From a bacterium (GTDB lineage: Bacteria; Patescibacteriota; Patescibacteriia; Patescibacteriales; JAKAJF01): a stretch of DNA of 64,000 bases. The position numbers and the translations under genes were made by a program. Numbering within the stretch: position 1 is the stretch's first letter; every line of letters begins with the position of its first letter. The notes under the pieces were generated by a model. The model was not told where the DNA came from and made no database searches. It saw only the letters and a list, made by a program, of their open reading frames with translations. The DNA lies in the NCBI GenBank assembly GCA_021788015.1, contig JAJYLD010000001.1:145581-209580 (forward strand), given 5' to 3'. Below are positions 3,405-64,000 of the stretch, piece by piece.

Positions 3405-3451
3405 TTTTTAGGTTTTAGTTATTTAAAAATACTGTAAACCTAAAACCTGAT

Positions 3452-3853
3452 ATGAAAAATCTCATCAAAATTTTAATCGTTTTACTTCTTTTGGGCGGTG
3501 CGGCTTTTTTTTATTATCTCGGAAAAGGCGACTTAAAAAAAGAAATCAGCTCGGTTCAAATCGCGAGAGAAGCAAACAATAAGCAAGAGAAACTCGTAAA
3601 CGATTACAAGTCCGGTCTCAAATCGGCGTTAAACGGTTATAATCCTGATTCCTCGAACTTGGATCAGGTTACAAACATAAAAAACAGAATCCTTAATTTA
3701 ACGGTACCGACTCAATTTAAAGATTTACATTTGAATCTTGTTTTTGCTTTCGTAAAAATGGAAGATTATTTTAAAACCGGCAATCAAGACGAAAAGGTCG
3801 CAAGCGAAAAAATGTTAAATGAAGCGAGGCAAAGCTATTCCTGGCTTAACTAA
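3452..3853 (+). CDS. hypothetical N-terminally membrane-anchored protein
   Basis: 133-aa ORF with one N-terminal hydrophobic helix (LIKILIVLLLLGGAAFFYYL). Confidence 0.5.
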   Translation: MKNLIKILIVLLLLGGAAFFYYLGKGDLKKEISSVQIAREANNKQEKLVNDYKSGLKSALNGYNPDSSNLDQVTNIKNRILNLTVPTQFKDLHLNLVFAFVKMEDYFKTGNQDEKVASEKMLNEARQSYSWLN

Positions 3854-3855
3854 TT

Positions 3856-4623
3856 ATGGAGAAACGTTTTTTACCATTTCTCGCTTCATTTTCCACTCTG
3901 GCGCTGCTGGAGATTTTTCTTTATCAGCCGCATTTTGTTTATTTTATTCTTGCGCTGGTCGATTATGTTTTGTTTTATGCCGCGTACAAACTTACAAAAG
4001 ATAATCTTATCGATAAACGATGGTGGAATCTGATGATTTTGCCCATCGTCTTTACGGACGGTTTGATCGGTTATTCCACACTTATTCCTTTTCGATCTTT
4101 TTTCGGGTCCATACAACTTTTATTTTTATTTGACATTTTTTTTGTTTATATTTATTTGCGGGCCGTATATTTTTATCTGGTTTTTCCCACGGAAGACCGG
4201 AAGACAAGCCTTGAAAACATTTCCTCTTGCGGAAATTTCCTTTCTTATTTTTTTATTTCTTCTCTGATCTTCGGCTTGCAATCTTTCGTGAACGCGTCAG
4301 TCTGGCCGCTCTTGCTTCTAATTATTTTGGCGAGCGGCGTTCTGGTATATCAAATGATTTGGGCCAGCATCGATAAAATCAAAGAAAATTTGATTTATAT
4401 CGCCGTCAGTTGTTTAATCTTGGCTGAATTGGCGGGAGCCATCTTTTATTTGCCGTTTAATTTCAATATAATGGGCTTGAGCCTCGCCATAATTTATTAT
4501 GTCATGACGGGTTTAATCAGAGTACGATTGCGCGGAACTTTGAATAAAAGGATAATAAAAGTTTATTTGGGCGTCGGCATCGCGAGTATTTTTATCATTT
4601 TATTAACCGCAAGATGGGTTTAA
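3856..4623 (+). CDS. hypothetical polytopic membrane protein
   Basis: 255-aa ORF with multiple hydrophobic segments, starting 3 nt after the preceding stop. Confidence 0.55.
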   Translation: MEKRFLPFLASFSTLALLEIFLYQPHFVYFILALVDYVLFYAAYKLTKDNLIDKRWWNLMILPIVFTDGLIGYSTLIPFRSFFGSIQLLFLFDIFFVYIYLRAVYFYLVFPTEDRKTSLENISSCGNFLSYFFISSLIFGLQSFVNASVWPLLLLIILASGVLVYQMIWASIDKIKENLIYIAVSCLILAELAGAIFYLPFNFNIMGLSLAIIYYVMTGLIRVRLRGTLNKRIIKVYLGVGIASIFIILLTARWV

Positions 4624-6416: not shown

Positions 6417-7607
6417 ATGCACATTAAGTCGATTAGAGAAGCGAAAAATTTAAAAGAAAGGAGGGTTTTCTTGCGCTCCGATTTTAATGTACCTATTGTA
6501 AAAGGGAAAATACTCGACGATTATAAATTAATTTCCAGTCTGCCCACGATTCGTTTTCTTTTGAGCAATAAATGCAAAATCATAATCGGGACTCACCTGG
6601 GCAGCCCGAAAGGAAAAAGTTCGGCTTTTTCCACAAAACCGATTGCGTTGAGACTCGGTAGGATGCTCGGTAAGAAAATAAAGTTCGTTAACGACTGTAT
6701 AGGCGCGAAAGTTGAAAAAGAAATAGAGAAAATGAAAGACGGAGAAATTTTATTTCTGGAAAACTTGCGATTTTACAAAGAAGAAAAGAAAAATAAAAAA
6801 TCATTCGCGAAAAAACTCGCCCGTTTGGCCGATATTTACGTGAACGACGCTTTCGGCGTAAGTCATAGGAAACATGCTTCCGTCAGCGCGATAAGAAAAT
6901 ATCTGCCCCATTACGCCGGACTTTTGATGGAAAAAGAAATTTTAAACTTAAACAAGATTTTGCATCCGAGTAAACCGTTCGTTGTCGTCATGGGCGGAGC
7001 GAAAATTGCGACCAAATTGCAAATTCTTGAACGATTCGAAGGCAAGGCCGATTATATTCTTCTGGGCGGATCGCTCGCCAACACGCTTTTATCGATTTTG
7101 GGATACGAAGTGGGGAAATCAAGAGTGGAAACGGATGATATGAGCCTTACGCATCAGCTTATTTCTTTTTACAAGCGATGCAAAAATAAAAAAGTCATTC
7201 TGCCTCTGGATTTCGCCGTTTCCCAAAGCAAAGACGGAAAGGGAAACGCGAAAATAAAAACCCTGGGAAACGTCGATAAAAAAGATTACATTTTCGACAT
7301 CGGACCGAAGACTATTTCTTTTTATGCGAAATTCATAAAGAAGGGAAATACGATTGTTTGGAACGGACCCTTGGGCATGTTCGAGAATTCTCATTTTAAG
7401 CACGGAACGATTTCAATCGCGAGAACAATAGCGGCAAGGTCGACCGGCGCCGCTTTCGGAGTGGCCGGTGGAGGGGAAACGGTCGAGGCTTTGAAGGCGA
7501 CGCACATGATGGATTATGTCGATTGGGTTTCGACCGGCGGCGGCGCCATGCTTTCGTATTTGAACGGCGAGAAAATGCCGGGACTGAAAGGAATTGTTAG
7601 ACGATAA
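6417..7607 (+). CDS. pgk: phosphoglycerate kinase
   Basis: FNVP, HLGSPKG, ENLRFYKEE, VNDAFGVSHR, GGAKIATK, WNGPLGMFE, GGGETV. The ORF-track TTG start at 6369 lies in promoter/repeat DNA; ATG 6417 is preferred. Confidence 0.93.
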   Translation: MHIKSIREAKNLKERRVFLRSDFNVPIVKGKILDDYKLISSLPTIRFLLSNKCKIIIGTHLGSPKGKSSAFSTKPIALRLGRMLGKKIKFVNDCIGAKVEKEIEKMKDGEILFLENLRFYKEEKKNKKSFAKKLARLADIYVNDAFGVSHRKHASVSAIRKYLPHYAGLLMEKEILNLNKILHPSKPFVVVMGGAKIATKLQILERFEGKADYILLGGSLANTLLSILGYEVGKSRVETDDMSLTHQLISFYKRCKNKKVILPLDFAVSQSKDGKGNAKIKTLGNVDKKDYIFDIGPKTISFYAKFIKKGNTIVWNGPLGMFENSHFKHGTISIARTIAARSTGAAFGVAGGGETVEALKATHMMDYVDWVSTGGGAMLSYLNGEKMPGLKGIVRR

Positions 7608-7608
7608 A

Positions 7609-7692
7609 TTCTAATTTTTAAATTATAATTTCTAATGCCTCCTTTTGTAATTAGATATTTTATTAGAAATTGGAAATTATAATTTAGAAATT
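7609..7692. repeat. AT-rich palindromic intergenic element (TAGAAATT family)
   Basis: AAATTATAATTTCTAAT (7620-7636) pairs with ATTAGAAATTGGAAATTATAATTT (7662-7685), directly after the pgk stop. Confidence 0.8.
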
Positions 7693-7792
7693 TTTATTTT
7701 CGTTGTGCCATAATCTTCCGAAATGGATCCTGATTGGATTATCGGCAGAATCCTCTTGCGAGAGATTCCGTAGCGACGCAAAATAAAAATAT

Positions 7793-8293: not shown

Positions 8294-8409
8294 TAACATT
8301 GAAAAATTCCGTTGCAAAATTATAATTTCAAATAAAAAACAGTAAACAGACGACAGGAGATAGAATTTAAAATCTGTTTTCTGTCGTCTGTTATCTGTTT
8401 ACTAAATTT

Positions 8410-9669
8410 ATGAAAATAAAAAACATAATCGCTCGGGAAATTCTTGATTCAAGAGGCAACCCGACTGTGGAAGTGAAAGTAGAGCTGGACAATGGCATAG
8501 TCGCGAAAGCGAGCGTGCCGTCCGGCGCTTCGACTGGAATCCACGAAGCTTGGGAAATGCGCGACGGCGATAAAAATCGTTACGGCGGTTTGGGCGTGCT
8601 TACGGCCGTAAAAAATGTCAACACAAAAATTAAAAAAGAATTGGTCGGCATGGACGTAACCGATCAAAAGAAAATCGACGAAGCCATGATTAAATTGGAT
8701 GGAACGGAAAATAAAAGAAAACTGGGAGCGAACGCTATCTTAGGAGTTTCTCTCGCAGCAGCTCGCGCCGGCGCTATGGCCAAGAAAAAAGAATTGTACG
8801 AATATCTAGCCTCGACTTATGATTTTAAAAAGCCCGATTCGATGCCGACGCCGTCATTTAATATTTTTAATGGCGGTAAGCACGCGGATACGAATTTGGA
8901 TTTTCAGGAATTCATGATCATTCCGCTCAAAAAAACAAGCTTTGCCGAGAAAGTGAGAATGGGCGCGGAAATTTTCCATGAACTCGGTCATGTTCTAAAA
9001 AAAGCCGGTTTCGATACCGACGTCGGAAACGAAGGCGGATACGCGCCGGATATTTTTTCAAGCGTGCAGGCGATCGAATTGATCGTGGCCGCGATGATTA
9101 ACGCCGGTTACAAGCCTGGAGAAGATGTCGGCTTGGGCATTGACGTCGGTTCGTCCGTTCTTTACGACAAAGAAAAGAAAAAGTATATTTTCAAGCTCGA
9201 TCAGGCTCAATTCACAAATAAGACTCTGGTCGGACTGTATTACGAATGGTTCAGAAAATTTCCGATCGTTTCGATCGAGGACGGTTTGGCCGAAGACGAT
9301 TGGGACGGCTGGCGCGATTTAACAAAAGAACTTGGTCAAGATATTCTTCTGATCGGCGACGATTTGTTTACCACGAACGTGAACAGACTGCGCATGGGAT
9401 TACAAGAGAAAGTGGCGAACGCGATTCTGATCAAACCGAATCAGGTCGGAACTTTGACCGAAACGATGGAATGCGTCAAGCTCGCGCAAAAGCACAATTA
9501 TAAAATCATGGTTTCGCATAGGAGCGGGGAAACGACGGATGATTTTATCGCCGACTTGGCAGTCGCCGTCGGATCGGATTATATAAAATCAGGTTCTTTG
9601 TCCCGCGGCGAGAGACTGGCGAAATATAATCGGTTGATGGAAATAGAAGAGAGTCTAAAAAATTCCTAA
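8410..9669 (+). CDS. eno: enolase
   Basis: IIAREILDSRGNPTVEV, SVPSGASTG, IEDGLAEDDW, LIKPNQVGTLTE, SHRSGETTD. Confidence 0.97.
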   Translation: MKIKNIIAREILDSRGNPTVEVKVELDNGIVAKASVPSGASTGIHEAWEMRDGDKNRYGGLGVLTAVKNVNTKIKKELVGMDVTDQKKIDEAMIKLDGTENKRKLGANAILGVSLAAARAGAMAKKKELYEYLASTYDFKKPDSMPTPSFNIFNGGKHADTNLDFQEFMIIPLKKTSFAEKVRMGAEIFHELGHVLKKAGFDTDVGNEGGYAPDIFSSVQAIELIVAAMINAGYKPGEDVGLGIDVGSSVLYDKEKKKYIFKLDQAQFTNKTLVGLYYEWFRKFPIVSIEDGLAEDDWDGWRDLTKELGQDILLIGDDLFTTNVNRLRMGLQEKVANAILIKPNQVGTLTETMECVKLAQKHNYKIMVSHRSGETTDDFIADLAVAVGSDYIKSGSLSRGERLAKYNRLMEIEESLKNS

Positions 9670-9760
9670 ATTATGATTTCTAAGTTCTAATTAATTTTTA
9701 ATTTTAAAATTAGACATTTATTTTTTTTATTAGAAATTATAATTTAAAAATTAGAAATTT
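9667..9760. repeat. AT-rich palindromic intergenic element (TAGAAATT family)
   Basis: TAAATTATGATTTCTAA (9667-9683) pairs with TTAGAAATTATAATTTA (9730-9746). It overlaps the eno stop codon. Confidence 0.8.
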
Positions 9761-9764
9761 TATC

Positions 9765-11336
9765 ATGGCTGTAAAAAAACAAAAACAATCTAATAACCTT
9801 CCCTTGATTCTCGTTATCCTCGACGGTTGGGGAATAGCGGAACCGAATAGGGGCAACGCGGTTACGCTAGCGAAAACGCCGGTTATGAATCGATTGCGCG
9901 AGAGATATCCTTATACAGAACTTTGCGCCTCGGGGAATTGCGTCGGCTTGCCTCCGTTTCAGTCCGGAAACAGCGAAGCCGGGCATATGAATATCGGCGC
10001 GGGAAGACTTGTCGAGCAGGATTCGGTCAAAATCAGCAAAAGCATCAATGATGGCACGTTCTTTAAGAACGCCGCGTTTCTCGAAGCGATCAGACATGTC
10101 AAAAAGAACAAAACAAAATTGCATTTGATGGGCATGCTTTCCGAAGGGTCGAGTCCGCACAGCGATCCCGACCATATCGTTGCCTTGGTGGTCTTGGCAA
10201 AAAATTTTGGCGTTAAAGATGTTATTTTGCATTTATTTACCGATGGCCGCGATTCGCCGAAATTTGCTTCCTTAAAAATGGTAAATTTTATCGAAAAAAG
10301 TTTTAAAAACAATGAATGCGTCGGGACGATTATGGGCCGTTTTTACGCCATGGACCGAAAAAAAGAATGGGAAAGAACGGAAAAAGCGTATAACGCCCTC
10401 GTACTCGGCCAAGGAAAAAAGGCGGAAAGCGCAGAGGAAGCGATAAGCGAGAGTTATAACAGAGGCGAAACAGATGAATTTATCGAGCCTTATGTCATTA
10501 CGAAAGACGATAAAATTACTCCGCGCATCGGCGACGGCGACAGCGTCATATTTTTTAATTTAAGATCGGACCGAGCGAGGCAACTCGCGAAAGTTTTTGT
10601 CCAGAGCGATTTTAATGGAAAAAACCCCGGTTCGTTCAAAAGAAAAAAGATTTTAAAAAATTTGCGTTTCGTGGCCATGACCGATTTCGGTCCGGATTTG
10701 GACAGTATTCTCACCGCCTATCCGGCGGTCGATATTGTCGAGACCTTACCCATGGCTTTGAAAAGTCTGCGCCAATTATATATAGCCGAAACGGAAAAAT
10801 ACGCCCATGTCACATATTTTTTTAACGGCGGGTATGTGGGTACGGTCGCTGGCGAAACTCAATTTATGATTCCGTCTCCGCATGTGAAATATTATGACGA
10901 AACGCCGTGTATGAGCTCGAAGCCGCTCGCTCGGACAATCGTCGACAATGTAAAGAAAGGAAAATATGATTTTACCGTCTTGAATTTCGCCGCGCCGGAC
11001 ATGATCGGGCATACCGGCGATTTGAAAGCGGGAATAAAGTGCATTTCATGCGTGGATAAAGAGCTGGGCAAAATTGTTAACGCTTATCTCCGAAAAGGAG
11101 GAACGGTTGTAATTACGGCGGATCATGGTAATATTGAAGAGATGATTAATTTAAAAACGGGAGAAGTCGATACCGAGCATTCGACAAACCCCGTGCCGTT
11201 TTTAGTTGTAAACGATAAAATGAAAAAAATGAAATTGAAAAAAAATGGCAGTTTGTCCGATGTCGCGCCTACGATTCTAGAATTGTTGGGTGTAAAAAAA
11301 CCCAAGGAAATGACGGGAAGGAGCCTTATAAAATAA
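9765..11336 (+). CDS. gpmI: 2,3-bisphosphoglycerate-independent phosphoglycerate mutase, paralog 1
   Basis: LDGWG, GNSEAGHMNIGAGR, TDGRDS, ETEKYAHVTYFFNGG, NFAAPDMIGHTG, ITADHGN. Confidence 0.93.
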   Translation: MAVKKQKQSNNLPLILVILDGWGIAEPNRGNAVTLAKTPVMNRLRERYPYTELCASGNCVGLPPFQSGNSEAGHMNIGAGRLVEQDSVKISKSINDGTFFKNAAFLEAIRHVKKNKTKLHLMGMLSEGSSPHSDPDHIVALVVLAKNFGVKDVILHLFTDGRDSPKFASLKMVNFIEKSFKNNECVGTIMGRFYAMDRKKEWERTEKAYNALVLGQGKKAESAEEAISESYNRGETDEFIEPYVITKDDKITPRIGDGDSVIFFNLRSDRARQLAKVFVQSDFNGKNPGSFKRKKILKNLRFVAMTDFGPDLDSILTAYPAVDIVETLPMALKSLRQLYIAETEKYAHVTYFFNGGYVGTVAGETQFMIPSPHVKYYDETPCMSSKPLARTIVDNVKKGKYDFTVLNFAAPDMIGHTGDLKAGIKCISCVDKELGKIVNAYLRKGGTVVITADHGNIEEMINLKTGEVDTEHSTNPVPFLVVNDKMKKMKLKKNGSLSDVAPTILELLGVKKPKEMTGRSLIK

Positions 11337-15939: not shown

Positions 15940-16068
15940 GCCACTGTAGCTCAGTCGGGTAGAGCACCTCTGAAGGTAATCTTTCTGACTGGGCAAGCGC
16001 TGGCTCGGATTAGAAAAAATCCTTCATGAAAGAGGGGGTCGCGGGTTCAATTCCCGTCGGTGGCTCCA
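15940..16068 (+). tRNA. tRNA gene interrupted in the anticodon loop (Gly-like body, anticodon unresolved)
   Basis: Acceptor GCCACTG/CGGTGGC, D arm GCTC-AGTCGGGTA-GAGC, variable GGGTC, T arm GCGGG-TTCAATT-CCCGT, encoded TCCA. The anticodon stem halves CCTCT (15967-15971) and AGAGG (16031-16035) are separated by 59 nt instead of 7. Confidence 0.7.
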
Positions 16069-16253: not shown

Positions 16254-16333
16254 AACTCAAAACTCAAATGTTAAAACTCAAAGCTACAACTTAAAACTCA
16301 AAACTTTTTAGTTTTGGTTTTGCATTTTGAGTT
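16254..16333. repeat. AAAACTCAAAAC-family imperfect palindrome, copy upstream of groES
   Basis: TAACTCAAAACTCAAATGTTAAAACTCAAAGCTACAACTTAAAACTCAAAACTTTTTAGTTTTGGTTTTGCATTTTGAGTTA. A near-copy lies at 16671-16773. Confidence 0.75.
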
Positions 16334-16670: not shown

Positions 16671-18424
<1,754 letters not shown>

Positions 18425-21354: not shown

Positions 21355-21488
21355 GAATTTCTAATTTCTAAATTCTCAATCAGACATAAATTCAAAAAAT
21401 ATAAATCCAAATGATCAAAACGTTTTGAATTTTTAATTCTGTCATTTGATATCGTTTAGAAATTAGATATTATGATTTAGGATTTTTG
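21355..21488. repeat. AT-rich palindromic intergenic element (same family as the RNase P insertions)
   Basis: The right end TTGATATCGTTTAGAAATTAGATATTATGATTTAGGATTT parallels TTGATATTGTTTAGTATTTAGAATTTAGGATTT in 62850-63020. There is an inner AAATTCAAAA...TTTTGAATTT palindrome. Confidence 0.7.
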
Positions 21489-41698: not shown

Positions 41699-41817
41699 AT
41701 AAATTTAAAATTTTTAATTTTGTAATTTTTAAATAACATTCTAATTTTTAATTTCTAAGTTTAAAAATTTAGTCATTAAAAATTGTTTGGAAATTAAAAA
41801 TTATAAAATTGAAAATT
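41699..41817. repeat. AT-rich palindromic intergenic element
   Basis: Arms AATTTTTAATTTTGTAATTTTTAA and TTGGAAATTAAAAATTATAAAATTGAAAATT. The core TTAAAAATTTAGTCATTAAAAATTGTTT is shared with 48330-48442. Confidence 0.75.
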
Positions 41818-45890: not shown

Positions 45891-45914
45891 AAAAATAAAG
45901 TTGTTGTCTCGCTT

Positions 45915-46030
45915 TTAAATGTCTAAATTGTAATTTCTAATTTCTAATAAAATGTTCAATGACAAATTTTAAAATTTAGATACTTTGAAATTTTATTGGA
46001 AATTATAATTTAGAAATTAGAAAATTTTTA
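45915..46030. repeat. AT-rich palindromic intergenic element (TAGAAATT family)
   Basis: TCTAAATTGTAATTTCTAATTTCTAAT (45922-45948) pairs with ATTGGAAATTATAATTTAGAAATTAGAAAA (45996-46024). Confidence 0.8.
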
Positions 46031-46045
46031 GCCCATAATTTTTTT

Positions 46046-48329: not shown

Positions 48330-48442
48330 AATTTTTTAATTTTATAATTTTAAAATAATGTCCCAATTTTTAATGACTAAATTTATTTAAAAATTTAGTC
48401 ATTAAAAATTGTTTAAAAATTAAAAATTAAGAATTTAAAATT
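48330..48442. repeat. AT-rich palindromic intergenic element
   Basis: Perfect inner inverted repeat CAATTTTTAATGACTAAATTT / AAATTTAGTCATTAAAAATTG, flanked by AT-rich arms. Confidence 0.8.
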
Positions 48443-61229: not shown

Positions 61230-61301
61230 GGTCGTTTAACTCAGCGGTAGAGTGCTTCGTTCACATCGAAGAAGTCGCTGGTTCAAATCCAGCAACGACC
61301 A
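61230..61301 (+). tRNA. tRNA-Val (CAC)
   Basis: Acceptor GGTCGTT/AACGACC, D arm ACTC-AGCGGTA-GAGT, anticodon arm CTTCG-TTCACAT-CGAAG, variable AAGTC, T arm GCTGG-TTCAAAT-CCAGC, discriminator A. CCA is not encoded. Confidence 0.88.
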
Positions 61302-61302
61302 C

Positions 61303-62639: not shown

Positions 62640-62668
62640 TTGACTTTCATCAAAGAAAATGGTATTAT
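62640..62668 (+). promoter_or_regulatory. sigma70-type promoter upstream of RNase P RNA
   Basis: TTGACT (62640-62645), 17-nt spacer, TATTAT (62663-62668). Confidence 0.55.
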
Positions 62669-62849
62669 CAAATCGTAAAATGTTCCTTAAATTTTATTAA
62701 AATCAAGGTAAGCGGATGGCCGCCCCGGTTTGCCGGGGAGGAAAGTCCGGACTTCTCTCGATTTTCAAATCGAGAAAGCGGCAGTGGGTAACGCCCACCG
62801 CTACGATAGCGATATCGGAGTAGGGAAAGTGCCACAGAGACAATACTAA

Positions 62850-63020
62850 CCAGCGCGGAGCACTGGAAATTCTAAGCACTAATATCTAAATCCTAAACGA
62901 ATTTCAAAATTAAATGTTCAAAATCTAAAACTGTTTTGAATTTATAATTTTGATTATTTGATATTGTTTAGTATTTAGAATTTAGGATTTGGGGTTTCCA
63001 TTGCTCTGCGGTGGCAAAAG
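62850..63020 (+). repeat. 171-nt hairpin insertion in RNase P RNA (P12 position)
   Basis: GC stem CCAGCGCGGAGCACTGG / CCATTGCTCTGCGGTGG encloses an AT-rich palindrome. Identical to 63137-63307 except for one base. Confidence 0.9.
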
Positions 63021-63136
63021 GTGAAAAGTCTTCAGGTGTTATTGGTTGATTAGGATATCCGATTGACTAATAGCTACTGAAATCGCACCCGCGCGAGCGG
63101 AATGCGCGGCAAACCCTGCCTGAAGCAAGAGCAAAG

Positions 63137-63307
63137 CCAGCGCGGAGCACTGGAAATTCTAAGCACTAATATCTAAATCCTAAACGAATTTCAAAATTAA
63201 ATGTTCAAAATCTAAAACTGTTTTGAATTTATAATTTTGATTATTTGATATTGTTTAGTATTTAGAATTTAGGATTTGGGGTTTCCATTGCTCCGCGGTG
63301 GCAAAAG
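63137..63307 (+). repeat. 171-nt hairpin insertion in RNase P RNA (P15-P17 position)
   Basis: Second copy of the same 171-nt sequence, located between AGCAAGAGCAAAG and TGGCTCGCTTGA. Confidence 0.9.
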
Positions 63308-63438
63308 TGGCTCGCTTGATTCCGAAGGTAACTTCGGAGCCAGATAGATGGCCATCGCCCCCCCAAAGGGTACAGAATCCGGCTTACAGCTTGCCCTGAT
63401 TTTAATAAAATTTAAGATTAATAGATTAATCCCCATTT

Positions 63439-64000
63439 ATGAAGAGATCGGAACTCTTTTTTTCGTTTTTATTGGTTCCTCTGGATTTCATCATGATCGT
63501 CTTGGCCGGGGTTTCGGCCTACTATATCCGTTTTTCAGAATTCACCCGGGAAATTAGGCCGGTTATTTTTAATTTGCCTTTTCATTCTTACTTTAAAATC
63601 GTTCTTTTTATCGCGCTTTTGTGGATTTTGATTTTCGCTTTGGCCGGACTGTACAATATAAAAAGCGCGCGCAAACTGGCAAAAGAAATAATCCGAGTGA
63701 TTTTAGCCTGTTCGACAGGCCTTGTTTTGATCGTAATTTTAATTTTTTTCAGGCGGGAACTTTTTGATTCAAGATTTATAGTTTTGGCCGGCTGGTTGCT
63801 TGCGATCGTTTACGTGGGCATAAGCAGAAGCCTTGTCAGGGCCGTACAAAGAGACTTATTCAAGAGCGGAGTCGGTGTTCATAAAATCGTTCTCGTCGGA
63901 TCAAGTAAAACCACGGACAGTCTTATGAAAGCTTTTTCGACGAATTCTTATTCCGGATTCGAAGTCGTGAAAAGATTGCGCGATTTTAACATCGAAACGG
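63439..64000 (+). CDS. polyprenyl-phosphate sugar phosphotransferase (WbaP/EpsB-like), N-terminal part; 3' end outside window
   Basis: Open frame from ATG 63439 to the window end, so absent from the ORF track. MKRSELFFSFLLVPLDFIMIVLAGVSAYYIRF plus 4 TM helices, then KIVLVGSSKTTDSLMKAF, typical of the N-terminal half of bacterial sugar transferases. Confidence 0.6.
   Translation, partial: MKRSELFFSFLLVPLDFIMIVLAGVSAYYIRFSEFTREIRPVIFNLPFHSYFKIVLFIALLWILIFALAGLYNIKSARKLAKEIIRVILACSTGLVLIVILIFFRRELFDSRFIVLAGWLLAIVYVGISRSLVRAVQRDLFKSGVGVHKIVLVGSSKTTDSLMKAFSTNSYSGFEVVKRLRDFNIET

Follow-up and report, generated by a model that had tools for sequence, protein, structure and literature searches.

A native P12 hairpin probably copied onto the P16–P17 site of a giant RNase P RNA in Patescibacteria

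How an essential ribozyme comes to carry the same long helix twice is the question raised by a 64-kb stretch of patescibacterial DNA (contig JAJYLD010000001.1, positions 145,581–209,580; hereafter the window, from whose first letter all positions below are counted). The gene concerned is rnpB, which encodes the RNA of ribonuclease P (RNase P) and contains two near-identical hairpins. A sequence-only reading of the window described the gene as a type A RNase P RNA doubled in size, with one hairpin where P12 belongs and the other in place of the P15–P17 region, and proposed the insertion or duplication of a mobile hairpin. The account that we consider probable is a more specific one: the window would hold a functional rnpB of the Patescibacteria (Candidate Phyla Radiation, CPR), in which a native P12 expansion of ~165 nt was copied very recently onto the P16–P17 site. 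The host appears to be related to genomes labelled Falkowbacteria and Moraniibacteriota.

Two copies of one hairpin in a type A RNase P RNA

The identity of the gene was established by cmscan against Rfam, in which RF00010 matched 62704–63402 of the forward strand across the full model (1–367) with 144.3 bits, compared with a gathering score of 100, and an E value of 2e-44. At 699 nt, rnpB has about twice the length of the consensus of bacterial RNase P class A, so that the doubled size described earlier is borne out. Both strands of P4 in the catalytic core are present on the forward strand at 62738–62750 (GAGGAAAGUCCGG) and 63372–63386 (ACAGAAUCCGGCUUA), together with P12, P13, P14 and P18, as expected of type A. 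The conserved RNase P motifs quoted in the sequence-only reading were recovered as well, with GAGGAAAGTCCGG starting at 62738 and ACAGAATCCGGCTTA at 63372–63386. One feature departs from type A, as the cmscan alignment shows AGU in place of GGU for the CCA-pairing motif of the P15/P16 internal loop (consensus GGGUa, window AAGUG). This change does not exclude membership in type A, because many accepted members lack GGU, including 23 of the 35 CPR RNase P RNAs, which are without the tRNA CCA-pairing motif according to Lui et al. (2021, PMC8172020).

A repeat search returned 171-nt direct repeats at 62850–63020 and 63137–63307 with 99% identity (170/171). The sole difference lies at repeat position 158, with T at 63007 and C at 63294, and it turns a G·U pair into a G-C pair with the pairing preserved. 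Each copy forms a single long hairpin with a folding energy of −68.6 kcal/mol (z = −11.2 relative to shuffles), and in the fold of the whole 731-nt transcript all 130 of the 130 paired bases of each copy pair inside their own copy. When the two strands were compared, the forward strand folded to −68.2 kcal/mol with 65 pairs, nine of them G·U, and the reverse strand to −44.9 kcal/mol. Because the forward strand folds far better and with nine G·U pairs, and because the only difference between the copies keeps the pairing, the hairpin is best regarded as an RNA-level structure on the sense strand.

The placement of both copies followed from the cmscan alignment, which set one insertion point inside P12 and the other inside P15, in agreement with the two near-identical helices proposed at P12 and within P15–P17. 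Copy 1 is the P12 helix, aligned as a P12 insert: a 165-nt hairpin at 62850–63014 (+) whose basal stem comprises 17 bp (CCAGCGCGGAGCACUGG / CCAUUGCUCUGCGGUGG) and whose distal part is AT-rich; its AT-rich interior (62866–62997, +) shows a 7-nt periodicity with CUAAnnn units. It is followed at 63015–63028 (+) by the 3' base of P12 and the J12/13 linker, reading CAAAAG and then GUGAAAAG, with AAAAGGUGAAAAG conserved in relatives. Copy 2 is a P12-type hairpin at the P16–P17 position (63137–63301, +), the same as copy 1 except for the C at 63294, and in the alignment its 168-nt insert takes the place of 33 model positions within P15.

The surroundings of copy 2 define what was exchanged. The P15 stem is kept, since GAGC at 63129–63132 pairs with GCUC at 63310–63313, and so are both strands of the P15/P16 internal loop. 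On the 5' side, 63129–63136 (+) comprises the P15 strand and the J15/16 linker AAAG (63133–63136), where relatives have GAGCAAA[C/G]; on the 3' side, 63302–63313 (+) comprises the J16/15 linker CAAAAGUG (63302–63309) and the other P15 strand, where relatives have (N)AAAAGUGGCUC. Moreover, the flanks GAGCAAAG before copy 2 and CAAAAGUGGCUC after it agree with the family consensus around P16. The swap involves the distal P16–P17 hairpin only and is exact at the helix base. The earlier proposal that the whole P15/L15–P17 module had been replaced therefore stands for P16–P17, and not for the P15 stem and the two internal-loop strands, which are retained.

The repeat is also slightly longer than the piece that moved. 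Its last 6 nt (CAAAAG) match sequence that is native to relatives at both sites, AAAAG being native 3' of P12 (AAAAGGUGAAAAG) and 3' of P16 ((N)AAAAGUGGCUC). Since the CAAAAG tail belongs to both sites, the transferred unit is the 165-nt hairpin and not the 171 nt of the repeat.

A conserved long P12 and the origin of the second copy

Whether either hairpin is ordinary in this group was addressed by two scans. In the first, metagenomes were scanned with patterns anchored in the rnpB core, which gave at least 120 loci. Among the matches listed, the distance from one P4 strand to the other was 269–479 nt in 80 loci found with a strict 3' P4 pattern, and a looser 3' P4 pattern gave 98 loci with both P4 strands and a largest distance of 551 nt; the distance in the window is 634 nt. 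The seven closest among the matches listed have a short P12 and a short P16–P17 in the alignment, at the places occupied by the hairpins of the window. A 165-nt P12 of the same architecture and different sequence occurs in one metagenome contig (L173).

At the other end of the size range, both P4 strands lie only 150–190 nt apart in six viral contigs of IMG/VR (L033, L012, L039, L060, L020 and L021), and no standard bacterial RNase P RNA is nearly as small as these RNAs. Minimal RNase P RNAs, encoded by phages or by misclassified CPR contigs, are one possible explanation.

In the second scan, species-representative genomes were searched with a pattern that demands a P12 of 152–182 nt. It was matched by 15 species representatives, most of which are labelled Falkowbacteria, Moraniibacteriota, Parcubacteria or Patescibacteria. 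By full-model Rfam match, rnpB measures 547–711 nt in 10 of these 15 genomes and in L173, and it reaches ~870 nt in a further genome (L198, below); a giant rnpB such as that of the window is therefore normal in the group. Furthermore, 11 of the 15 share the design of P12, namely a 17-bp basal stem of the form CCRNYGC...GCRNYGG beneath an AT-rich distal hairpin, with a total length of 154–171 nt. The P12 of these 11 species, two of which are labelled Gammaproteobacteria, is 61–75% identical to that of the window.

Covariation confirmed that this P12 is a conserved RNA structure. In an alignment of 15 hairpins, RNAalifold predicted 34 pairs, of which 15 show compensatory changes. Paired cells amounted to 94%, compared with 29–50% when the partner columns were slid, and the covariation score was 0.359, which none of 500 shuffles reached, compared with at most 0.128 in the slid controls. 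Because the hairpin is orthologous and covarying in 11 species, copy 1, including its GC-rich basal stem, is a native P12 and no recent insertion. Of the earlier suggestion that a mobile hairpin had been inserted or duplicated, the duplication survives; mobile insertion at P12 does not. The possibility that the hairpins are ordinary lineage-specific helices of relatives, raised in the sequence-only reading as the opposite outcome, proved correct for P12.

It proved wrong for copy 2. In every relative in which the P15–P17 segment could be delimited, it consists of 30–84 nt of unrelated sequence, compared with 177 nt in the window. In addition, an internal exact direct repeat of at least 18 nt was found in none of the 98 other metagenome rnpB sequences among the matches listed. 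Copy 2 is most likely a recent duplication inside the gene.

The copying of P12-type hairpins onto other helices recurs in another genome, L198 (JBAQFQ010000004.1, Moraniibacteriota). Its rnpB, at ~6505–7380 on the reverse strand, contains three P12-type hairpins and scores only 39.8 bits in Rfam, below the threshold of 100. The hairpin directly after the P4 5' strand, at the P5/P7 site, is 93.75% identical to the P12 of the same RNA over 176 nt; a further one lies at P15–P17. The window has a small extra hairpin at the P5/P7 site (UCUCGAUUU / AAAUCGAGA, 62756–62775, +), an insert in the cmscan alignment located between P5 and P7. This small hairpin occupies the 5' P6 site, and P16–P17 is replaced by the P12-type hairpin; the P6 pseudoknot itself lies outside the Rfam model. 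Another genome, L200 (QIIF01000030.1, Falkowbacteria), combines a long P12 with a second expansion in the P13 region of its 687-nt rnpB (3420–4106), a nearly perfect hairpin of ~180 nt that is unrelated to P12, and the 252-nt segment holding this hairpin folds to −110.7 kcal/mol. Different species of the group expand different peripheral helices, among them the P5/P7 site, P12, P13 and P15–P17.

These results suggest the following course of events. The whole P12 hairpin would have been copied within the gene and would have replaced the short P16–P17 hairpin at the helix base, leaving P15 and the loop strands intact. The copying was most likely achieved by template switching or ectopic recombination, which the AAAAG found 3' of both sites may have helped. 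The catalytic core would be unchanged, and the RNA would act as an ordinary type A RNase P that tolerates both hairpins. Both project from peripheral helices whose length differs widely from one relative to the next, and we expect the mature RNA to retain them as expansion segments.

Competing accounts of the hairpins

Several points weigh against this account. Two identical 17-bp stems in one RNA could mispair: pairing between the 5' strand of copy 1 and the 3' strand of copy 2 is worth −27.7 kcal/mol, compared with −25.5 kcal/mol for copy 1's own stem; such mispairing potential should cost the ribozyme. Relatives with a long P12 and those with a short one are all 60–80% identical to the window in the core, an identity that does not resolve the tree, so that a single gain of the long P12 is suggested only by the homology of P12 itself. 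That the copying went from P12 to P16 is argued from stem orthology. An attempt to read this direction from the CAAAAG tail was rejected, AAAAG being native at both sites in relatives. L198 also has a P12-type hairpin at P15–P17, which makes an older paralogue with recent gene conversion conceivable. The data show which gene this is, where the copies lie, that P12 is orthologous and covarying, that relatives lack copy 2 and that the copying recurs in another genome; the direction and mechanism of copying, the retention of the hairpins in the mature RNA and their tolerance by the enzyme are points that we infer.

The alternative that survives best concerns the function of the hairpins and not their origin. 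A long, nearly uninterrupted duplex is the kind of substrate cut by RNase III, and each hairpin is an almost uninterrupted duplex of 65 bp. By RNase III-type processing, the AU-rich duplexes would be cut out after transcription, leaving a ribozyme of two or three pieces that the 17-bp basal stems keep together, a role for which the G+C-richer clamp under the AT-rich distal part, itself conserved, would be suited. The perfect extension of P1 by 20 bp also resembles a processing stem. However, the length of the hairpin is held at 154–171 nt in 11 species, and conservation of its sequence and pairing reaches far along the distal part, more than a removable piece would seem to need. An RNase III signature motif was not found in the 64-kb window, which is too small to be informative in this respect. 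We regard such fragmentation as a possibility on the unlikely side, and retention as expansion segments as the expected fate.

The outer part of the gene bears on processing as well. P1 is extended, as the sequence-only reading had stated: its 5' strand (62686–62722, +) and 3' strand (63380–63416, +) form an inverted repeat with 37-nt arms, of which 20, 7 and 5 bp are formed in the minimum-energy fold. The outer part consists of 20 perfect AT-only pairs (62686–62705 with 63397–63416), and the 7 and 5 further pairs follow inwards. AT-rich extensions of P1 were also seen in four relatives (L114, L097, L150 and L071). Upstream of the gene, a candidate sigma-70-type promoter-like site at 62640–62668 (+) combines TTGACT and TATTAT at a spacing of 17 nt with an extended −10 element (TG before the hexamer) and agrees with the consensus at 10 of 12 positions; the transcription start predicted from this match lies a few bases before 62686. 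Downstream, a sugar-transferase-like gene begins with ATG at 63439, and no terminator lies between rnpB and this ATG. This arrangement suggests that rnpB may be co-transcribed with the downstream gene and released by cleavage of the P1 processing stem. Among the remaining helices, the P18 hairpin was assigned by cmscan to 63321–63338 (+) with the sequence UCCGAAG GUAA CUUCGGA. A neighbouring gene encodes a cation-efflux protein whose homologues are labelled Falkowbacteria, Parcubacteria or Patescibacteria, the best non-self homologue being 64% identical; a search of genome contigs with this protein gave no match, the contigs of the homologues had no rnpB at those loci, and the gene neighbourhood is not conserved.

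As to the origin of copy 2, the strongest competitor of a recent copy from P12 is an old P16 paralogue of the P12 type that was homogenised by recent gene conversion, from an ancestor such as L198 represents. The P15–P17 hairpin of L198 is only ~64% identical to its own P12 and therefore old. Between the P5/P7-site hairpin and the P12 of L198 there are 10 differences, 8 of which fall in the 34-nt basal stem and 2 in the 137-nt interior (Fisher p = 4e-5), which suggests homogenisation of the interior. Four compensated base-pair swaps would account for the stem differences, and two of these swaps were checked explicitly. The pattern would fit homogenised interiors, and it would also fit selection for differing stems that avoid mispairing. 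Against an old paralogue in the window, P16 is short and unrelated in every other long-P12 relative with a delimitable P15–P17 segment, L198 belongs by core sequence to the more distant relatives, and the identity between the copies in the window extends over the stems as well as the interior. Homogenisation of an old paralogue is accordingly rated as rather unlikely, and the recent duplication of P12 is preferred.

Two independent insertions of a mobile hairpin, a miniature transposable element with the GC stems as its terminal inverted repeats, would explain why the interior of the hairpin is related to palindromes dispersed between genes (described below), why both copies sit at helix tips, and why L198 shows a similar multi-site pattern. 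Yet 11 other species have an orthologous P12 stem, with which the GC stem covaries. No target-site duplication was found at either copy, copy 1 lying between ...ACTAA and GGTGA... and copy 2 between ...CAAAG and TGGCT..., and no third copy of the GC stem was found in the 64-kb window. The bias of the fold towards the sense strand and the nine G·U pairs would moreover be unexpected for inverted repeats that act as DNA. A mobile element of this kind is highly doubtful.

An assembly artefact, in which one copy stems from wrong repeat resolution, has to be considered because the contig was assembled from a metagenome, a repeat of 171 nt is hard for short reads, and two other assemblies break at this place. 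The contigs in question, from two other samples (ERZ27233565 and SRR13170411), match the window with 100% identity for 11.7 kb and 6.8 kb and end at 62990 and 62879. These breaks lie 141 nt into copy 1 in the k141 assembly and 30 nt into it, or k − 1, in the Logan assembly. Breaks at exactly k and k − 1 imply that the repeat has two left-hand contexts in the reads, so that the assembly graph branches at a genuine repeat boundary. Furthermore, the 116 nt between the copies (63021–63136) hold P13, P14, the 3' strands of P11, P10, P7 and P5 and the 5' strand of P15; these are essential parts of rnpB, and as the repeat flanks them on either side, no path other than the assembled order yields a complete gene. 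The copies also differ at one base, and L198 displays the same phenomenon with copies diverged enough (94%) for unambiguous assembly. An artefact is very unlikely and is given next to no weight here. A group I or group II intron, a CRISPR element or another known RNA family was rejected for the insert, which is a simple hairpin, the window having no Rfam match beyond RNase P and tRNA and no intron family at the gathering threshold.

An unusual helix was also noticed in one of the tRNAs of the window. The tRNA at 15940–16065 (+) scores 48.1 bits in Rfam and is missed by ARAGORN, and its anticodon loop comprises 59 nt instead of 7. The extra 52–59 nt form a small hairpin, and UUCAUGA is a loop in which a CAU anticodon can be read; a group I intron would have to be far longer than this insert, which also does not lie at the canonical 37/38 position. 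This tRNA encodes its 3' CCA, and the tRNA-Val at 61230–61302 does not.

Heptamer palindromes, known parallels and implications

The distal part of P12 belongs to the same sequence family as intergenic palindromes of the genome, a kinship that had been noticed earlier and that quantitative comparison upheld. The interior of copy 1 (62866–62997) aligns end to end, with one gap, with the palindrome at 21355–21485, the score being 56 compared with 13.2 ± 2.1 for shuffles (z = 20). This paralogue of the hairpin interior, to which no strand is assigned, is 74% identical, lacks the GC basal stem and begins right after a stop codon. A covariance model built from the 15 hairpins matched six intergenic palindromes in the window with 27–44 bits, and three of the six match only model positions 18/19–149/150, which correspond to the AT-rich interior; 21355–21485 reaches 44 bits over positions 18–150 only. 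The same model gave one weak match in 668 kb of 100 other loci. A 7-nt unit underlies all these sequences: the self-match peaks at a lag of 7 nt in both arms of P12 (0.51 and 0.69) and in 8 of 8 intergenic palindromes tested, and AA and TT are invariant every 7 columns in the P12 hairpin alignment.

AT-rich palindromes of 7-nt units (TTCTAAn, CTCAAAA) fill many spacers between genes of the same strand, often starting right after the stop codon. They were located at 979–1108, 7565–7721, 8337–8400, 9655–9769, 16254–16333, 16672–16773, 21355–21485, 41708–41806, 45901–46039 and 48335–48440. The coding strand gives a clearly better fold in five of the eight that were tested, and terminators, processing sites and mRNA stabilisers are candidate roles. 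In L173 (636–670), and also in L202, 7-nt repeats (TACGAAT TATAAAT TACGAAT TATGAAT) were observed beside rnpB in a putative coding region resembling queuine tRNA-ribosyltransferase; heptamer repeats may thus also enter coding sequence.

A bolder proposal would be that the palindrome of 7-nt repeats is an active, self-propagating hairpin module, which copies itself into RNA helix tips and spacers and is perhaps functional as a protein platform or processing signal. We consider this doubtful. If it were true, the RNase P RNAs of this group would be remodelled by a new helix-to-helix mobile RNA/DNA element, and the near-identical interiors and compensated stem divergence of L198 would be its signature.

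The recent copy from P12, which remains our preferred account, has several parallels in known RNAs. The bacterial 23S rRNA contains intervening sequences at helices 25 and 45 that are excised by RNase III. They resemble the hairpins described here in that an essential structural RNA has a peripheral helix whose tip is replaced by an extended stem-loop; the P16 copy is patchy in its distribution like them, whereas the P12 expansion is conserved. The hairpins are also reminiscent of the expansion segments of eukaryotic rRNA and of the accretion view of RNA growth, in which helices are added peripherally around a fixed core. The difference is that the source of the added helix can be identified here as another helix of the same molecule, with 99.4% identity.

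A closer parallel concerns P12 itself. Vioque reportedly described in 1997 that the P12 of RNase P RNA in heterocyst-forming cyanobacteria contains heptamer repeats of the short tandemly repeated repetitive (STRR) type. The P12 of the window resembles that of these cyanobacterial RNAs in owing its length to repeats of 7-nt period, a repeat type also scattered through the non-coding DNA of the genome; it shows tandem 7-nt periodicity, and its repeat type occurs in six intergenic palindromes. Unlike the cyanobacterial case, it belongs to another phylum and has another repeat sequence, it forms a covarying palindromic hairpin in many species, and the helix has been copied elsewhere in the ribozyme. 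Its units (CUAAnnn and CCAAnnn) are presumably unrelated in sequence to the cyanobacterial ones, and we therefore take it to be an analogue and not a member of that family.

For RNase P RNAs of the CPR, large extensions of helices, including an extended P15, are described by Lui et al. (2021, PMC8172020), where missing helices are also reported and the loss of P16 and P17 is called "not unusual". With the type A RNAs of that paper the window shares the catalytic core and the helices P1–P5, P7–P15 and P18, with AGU in place of GGU in its motif. Beyond what the consulted text of that paper describes are the conserved ~165-nt P12, its 7-nt repeat structure and the presence of the same hairpin at more than one helix, the expansions here being 170/171 identical. 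A literature search on RNase P RNA in Patescibacteria and on rnpB in the CPR returned nothing beyond this paper. As far as could be found, a conserved and covarying P12 of ~165 nt, its kinship with intergenic heptamer palindromes and the copying of a helix within the ribozyme have not been described.

The duplicated hairpin leaves the view of how RNase P works unchanged. For the annotation of CPR genomes and for estimates of their completeness, it matters that an rnpB of the L198 type would be missed by standard annotation (39.8 bits against 100). The lineage as a whole presents a group of giant bacterial RNase P RNAs of ~550–870 nt with a conserved, covarying P12 of ~165 nt. Within it, the window would provide a clear natural case in which an essential ribozyme has grown through the copying of one helix of its own onto another, recently and from a source that is still recognisable (170/171 identical), a mode of growth of large RNAs by added helices that is usually inferred from ancient, diverged structures only.

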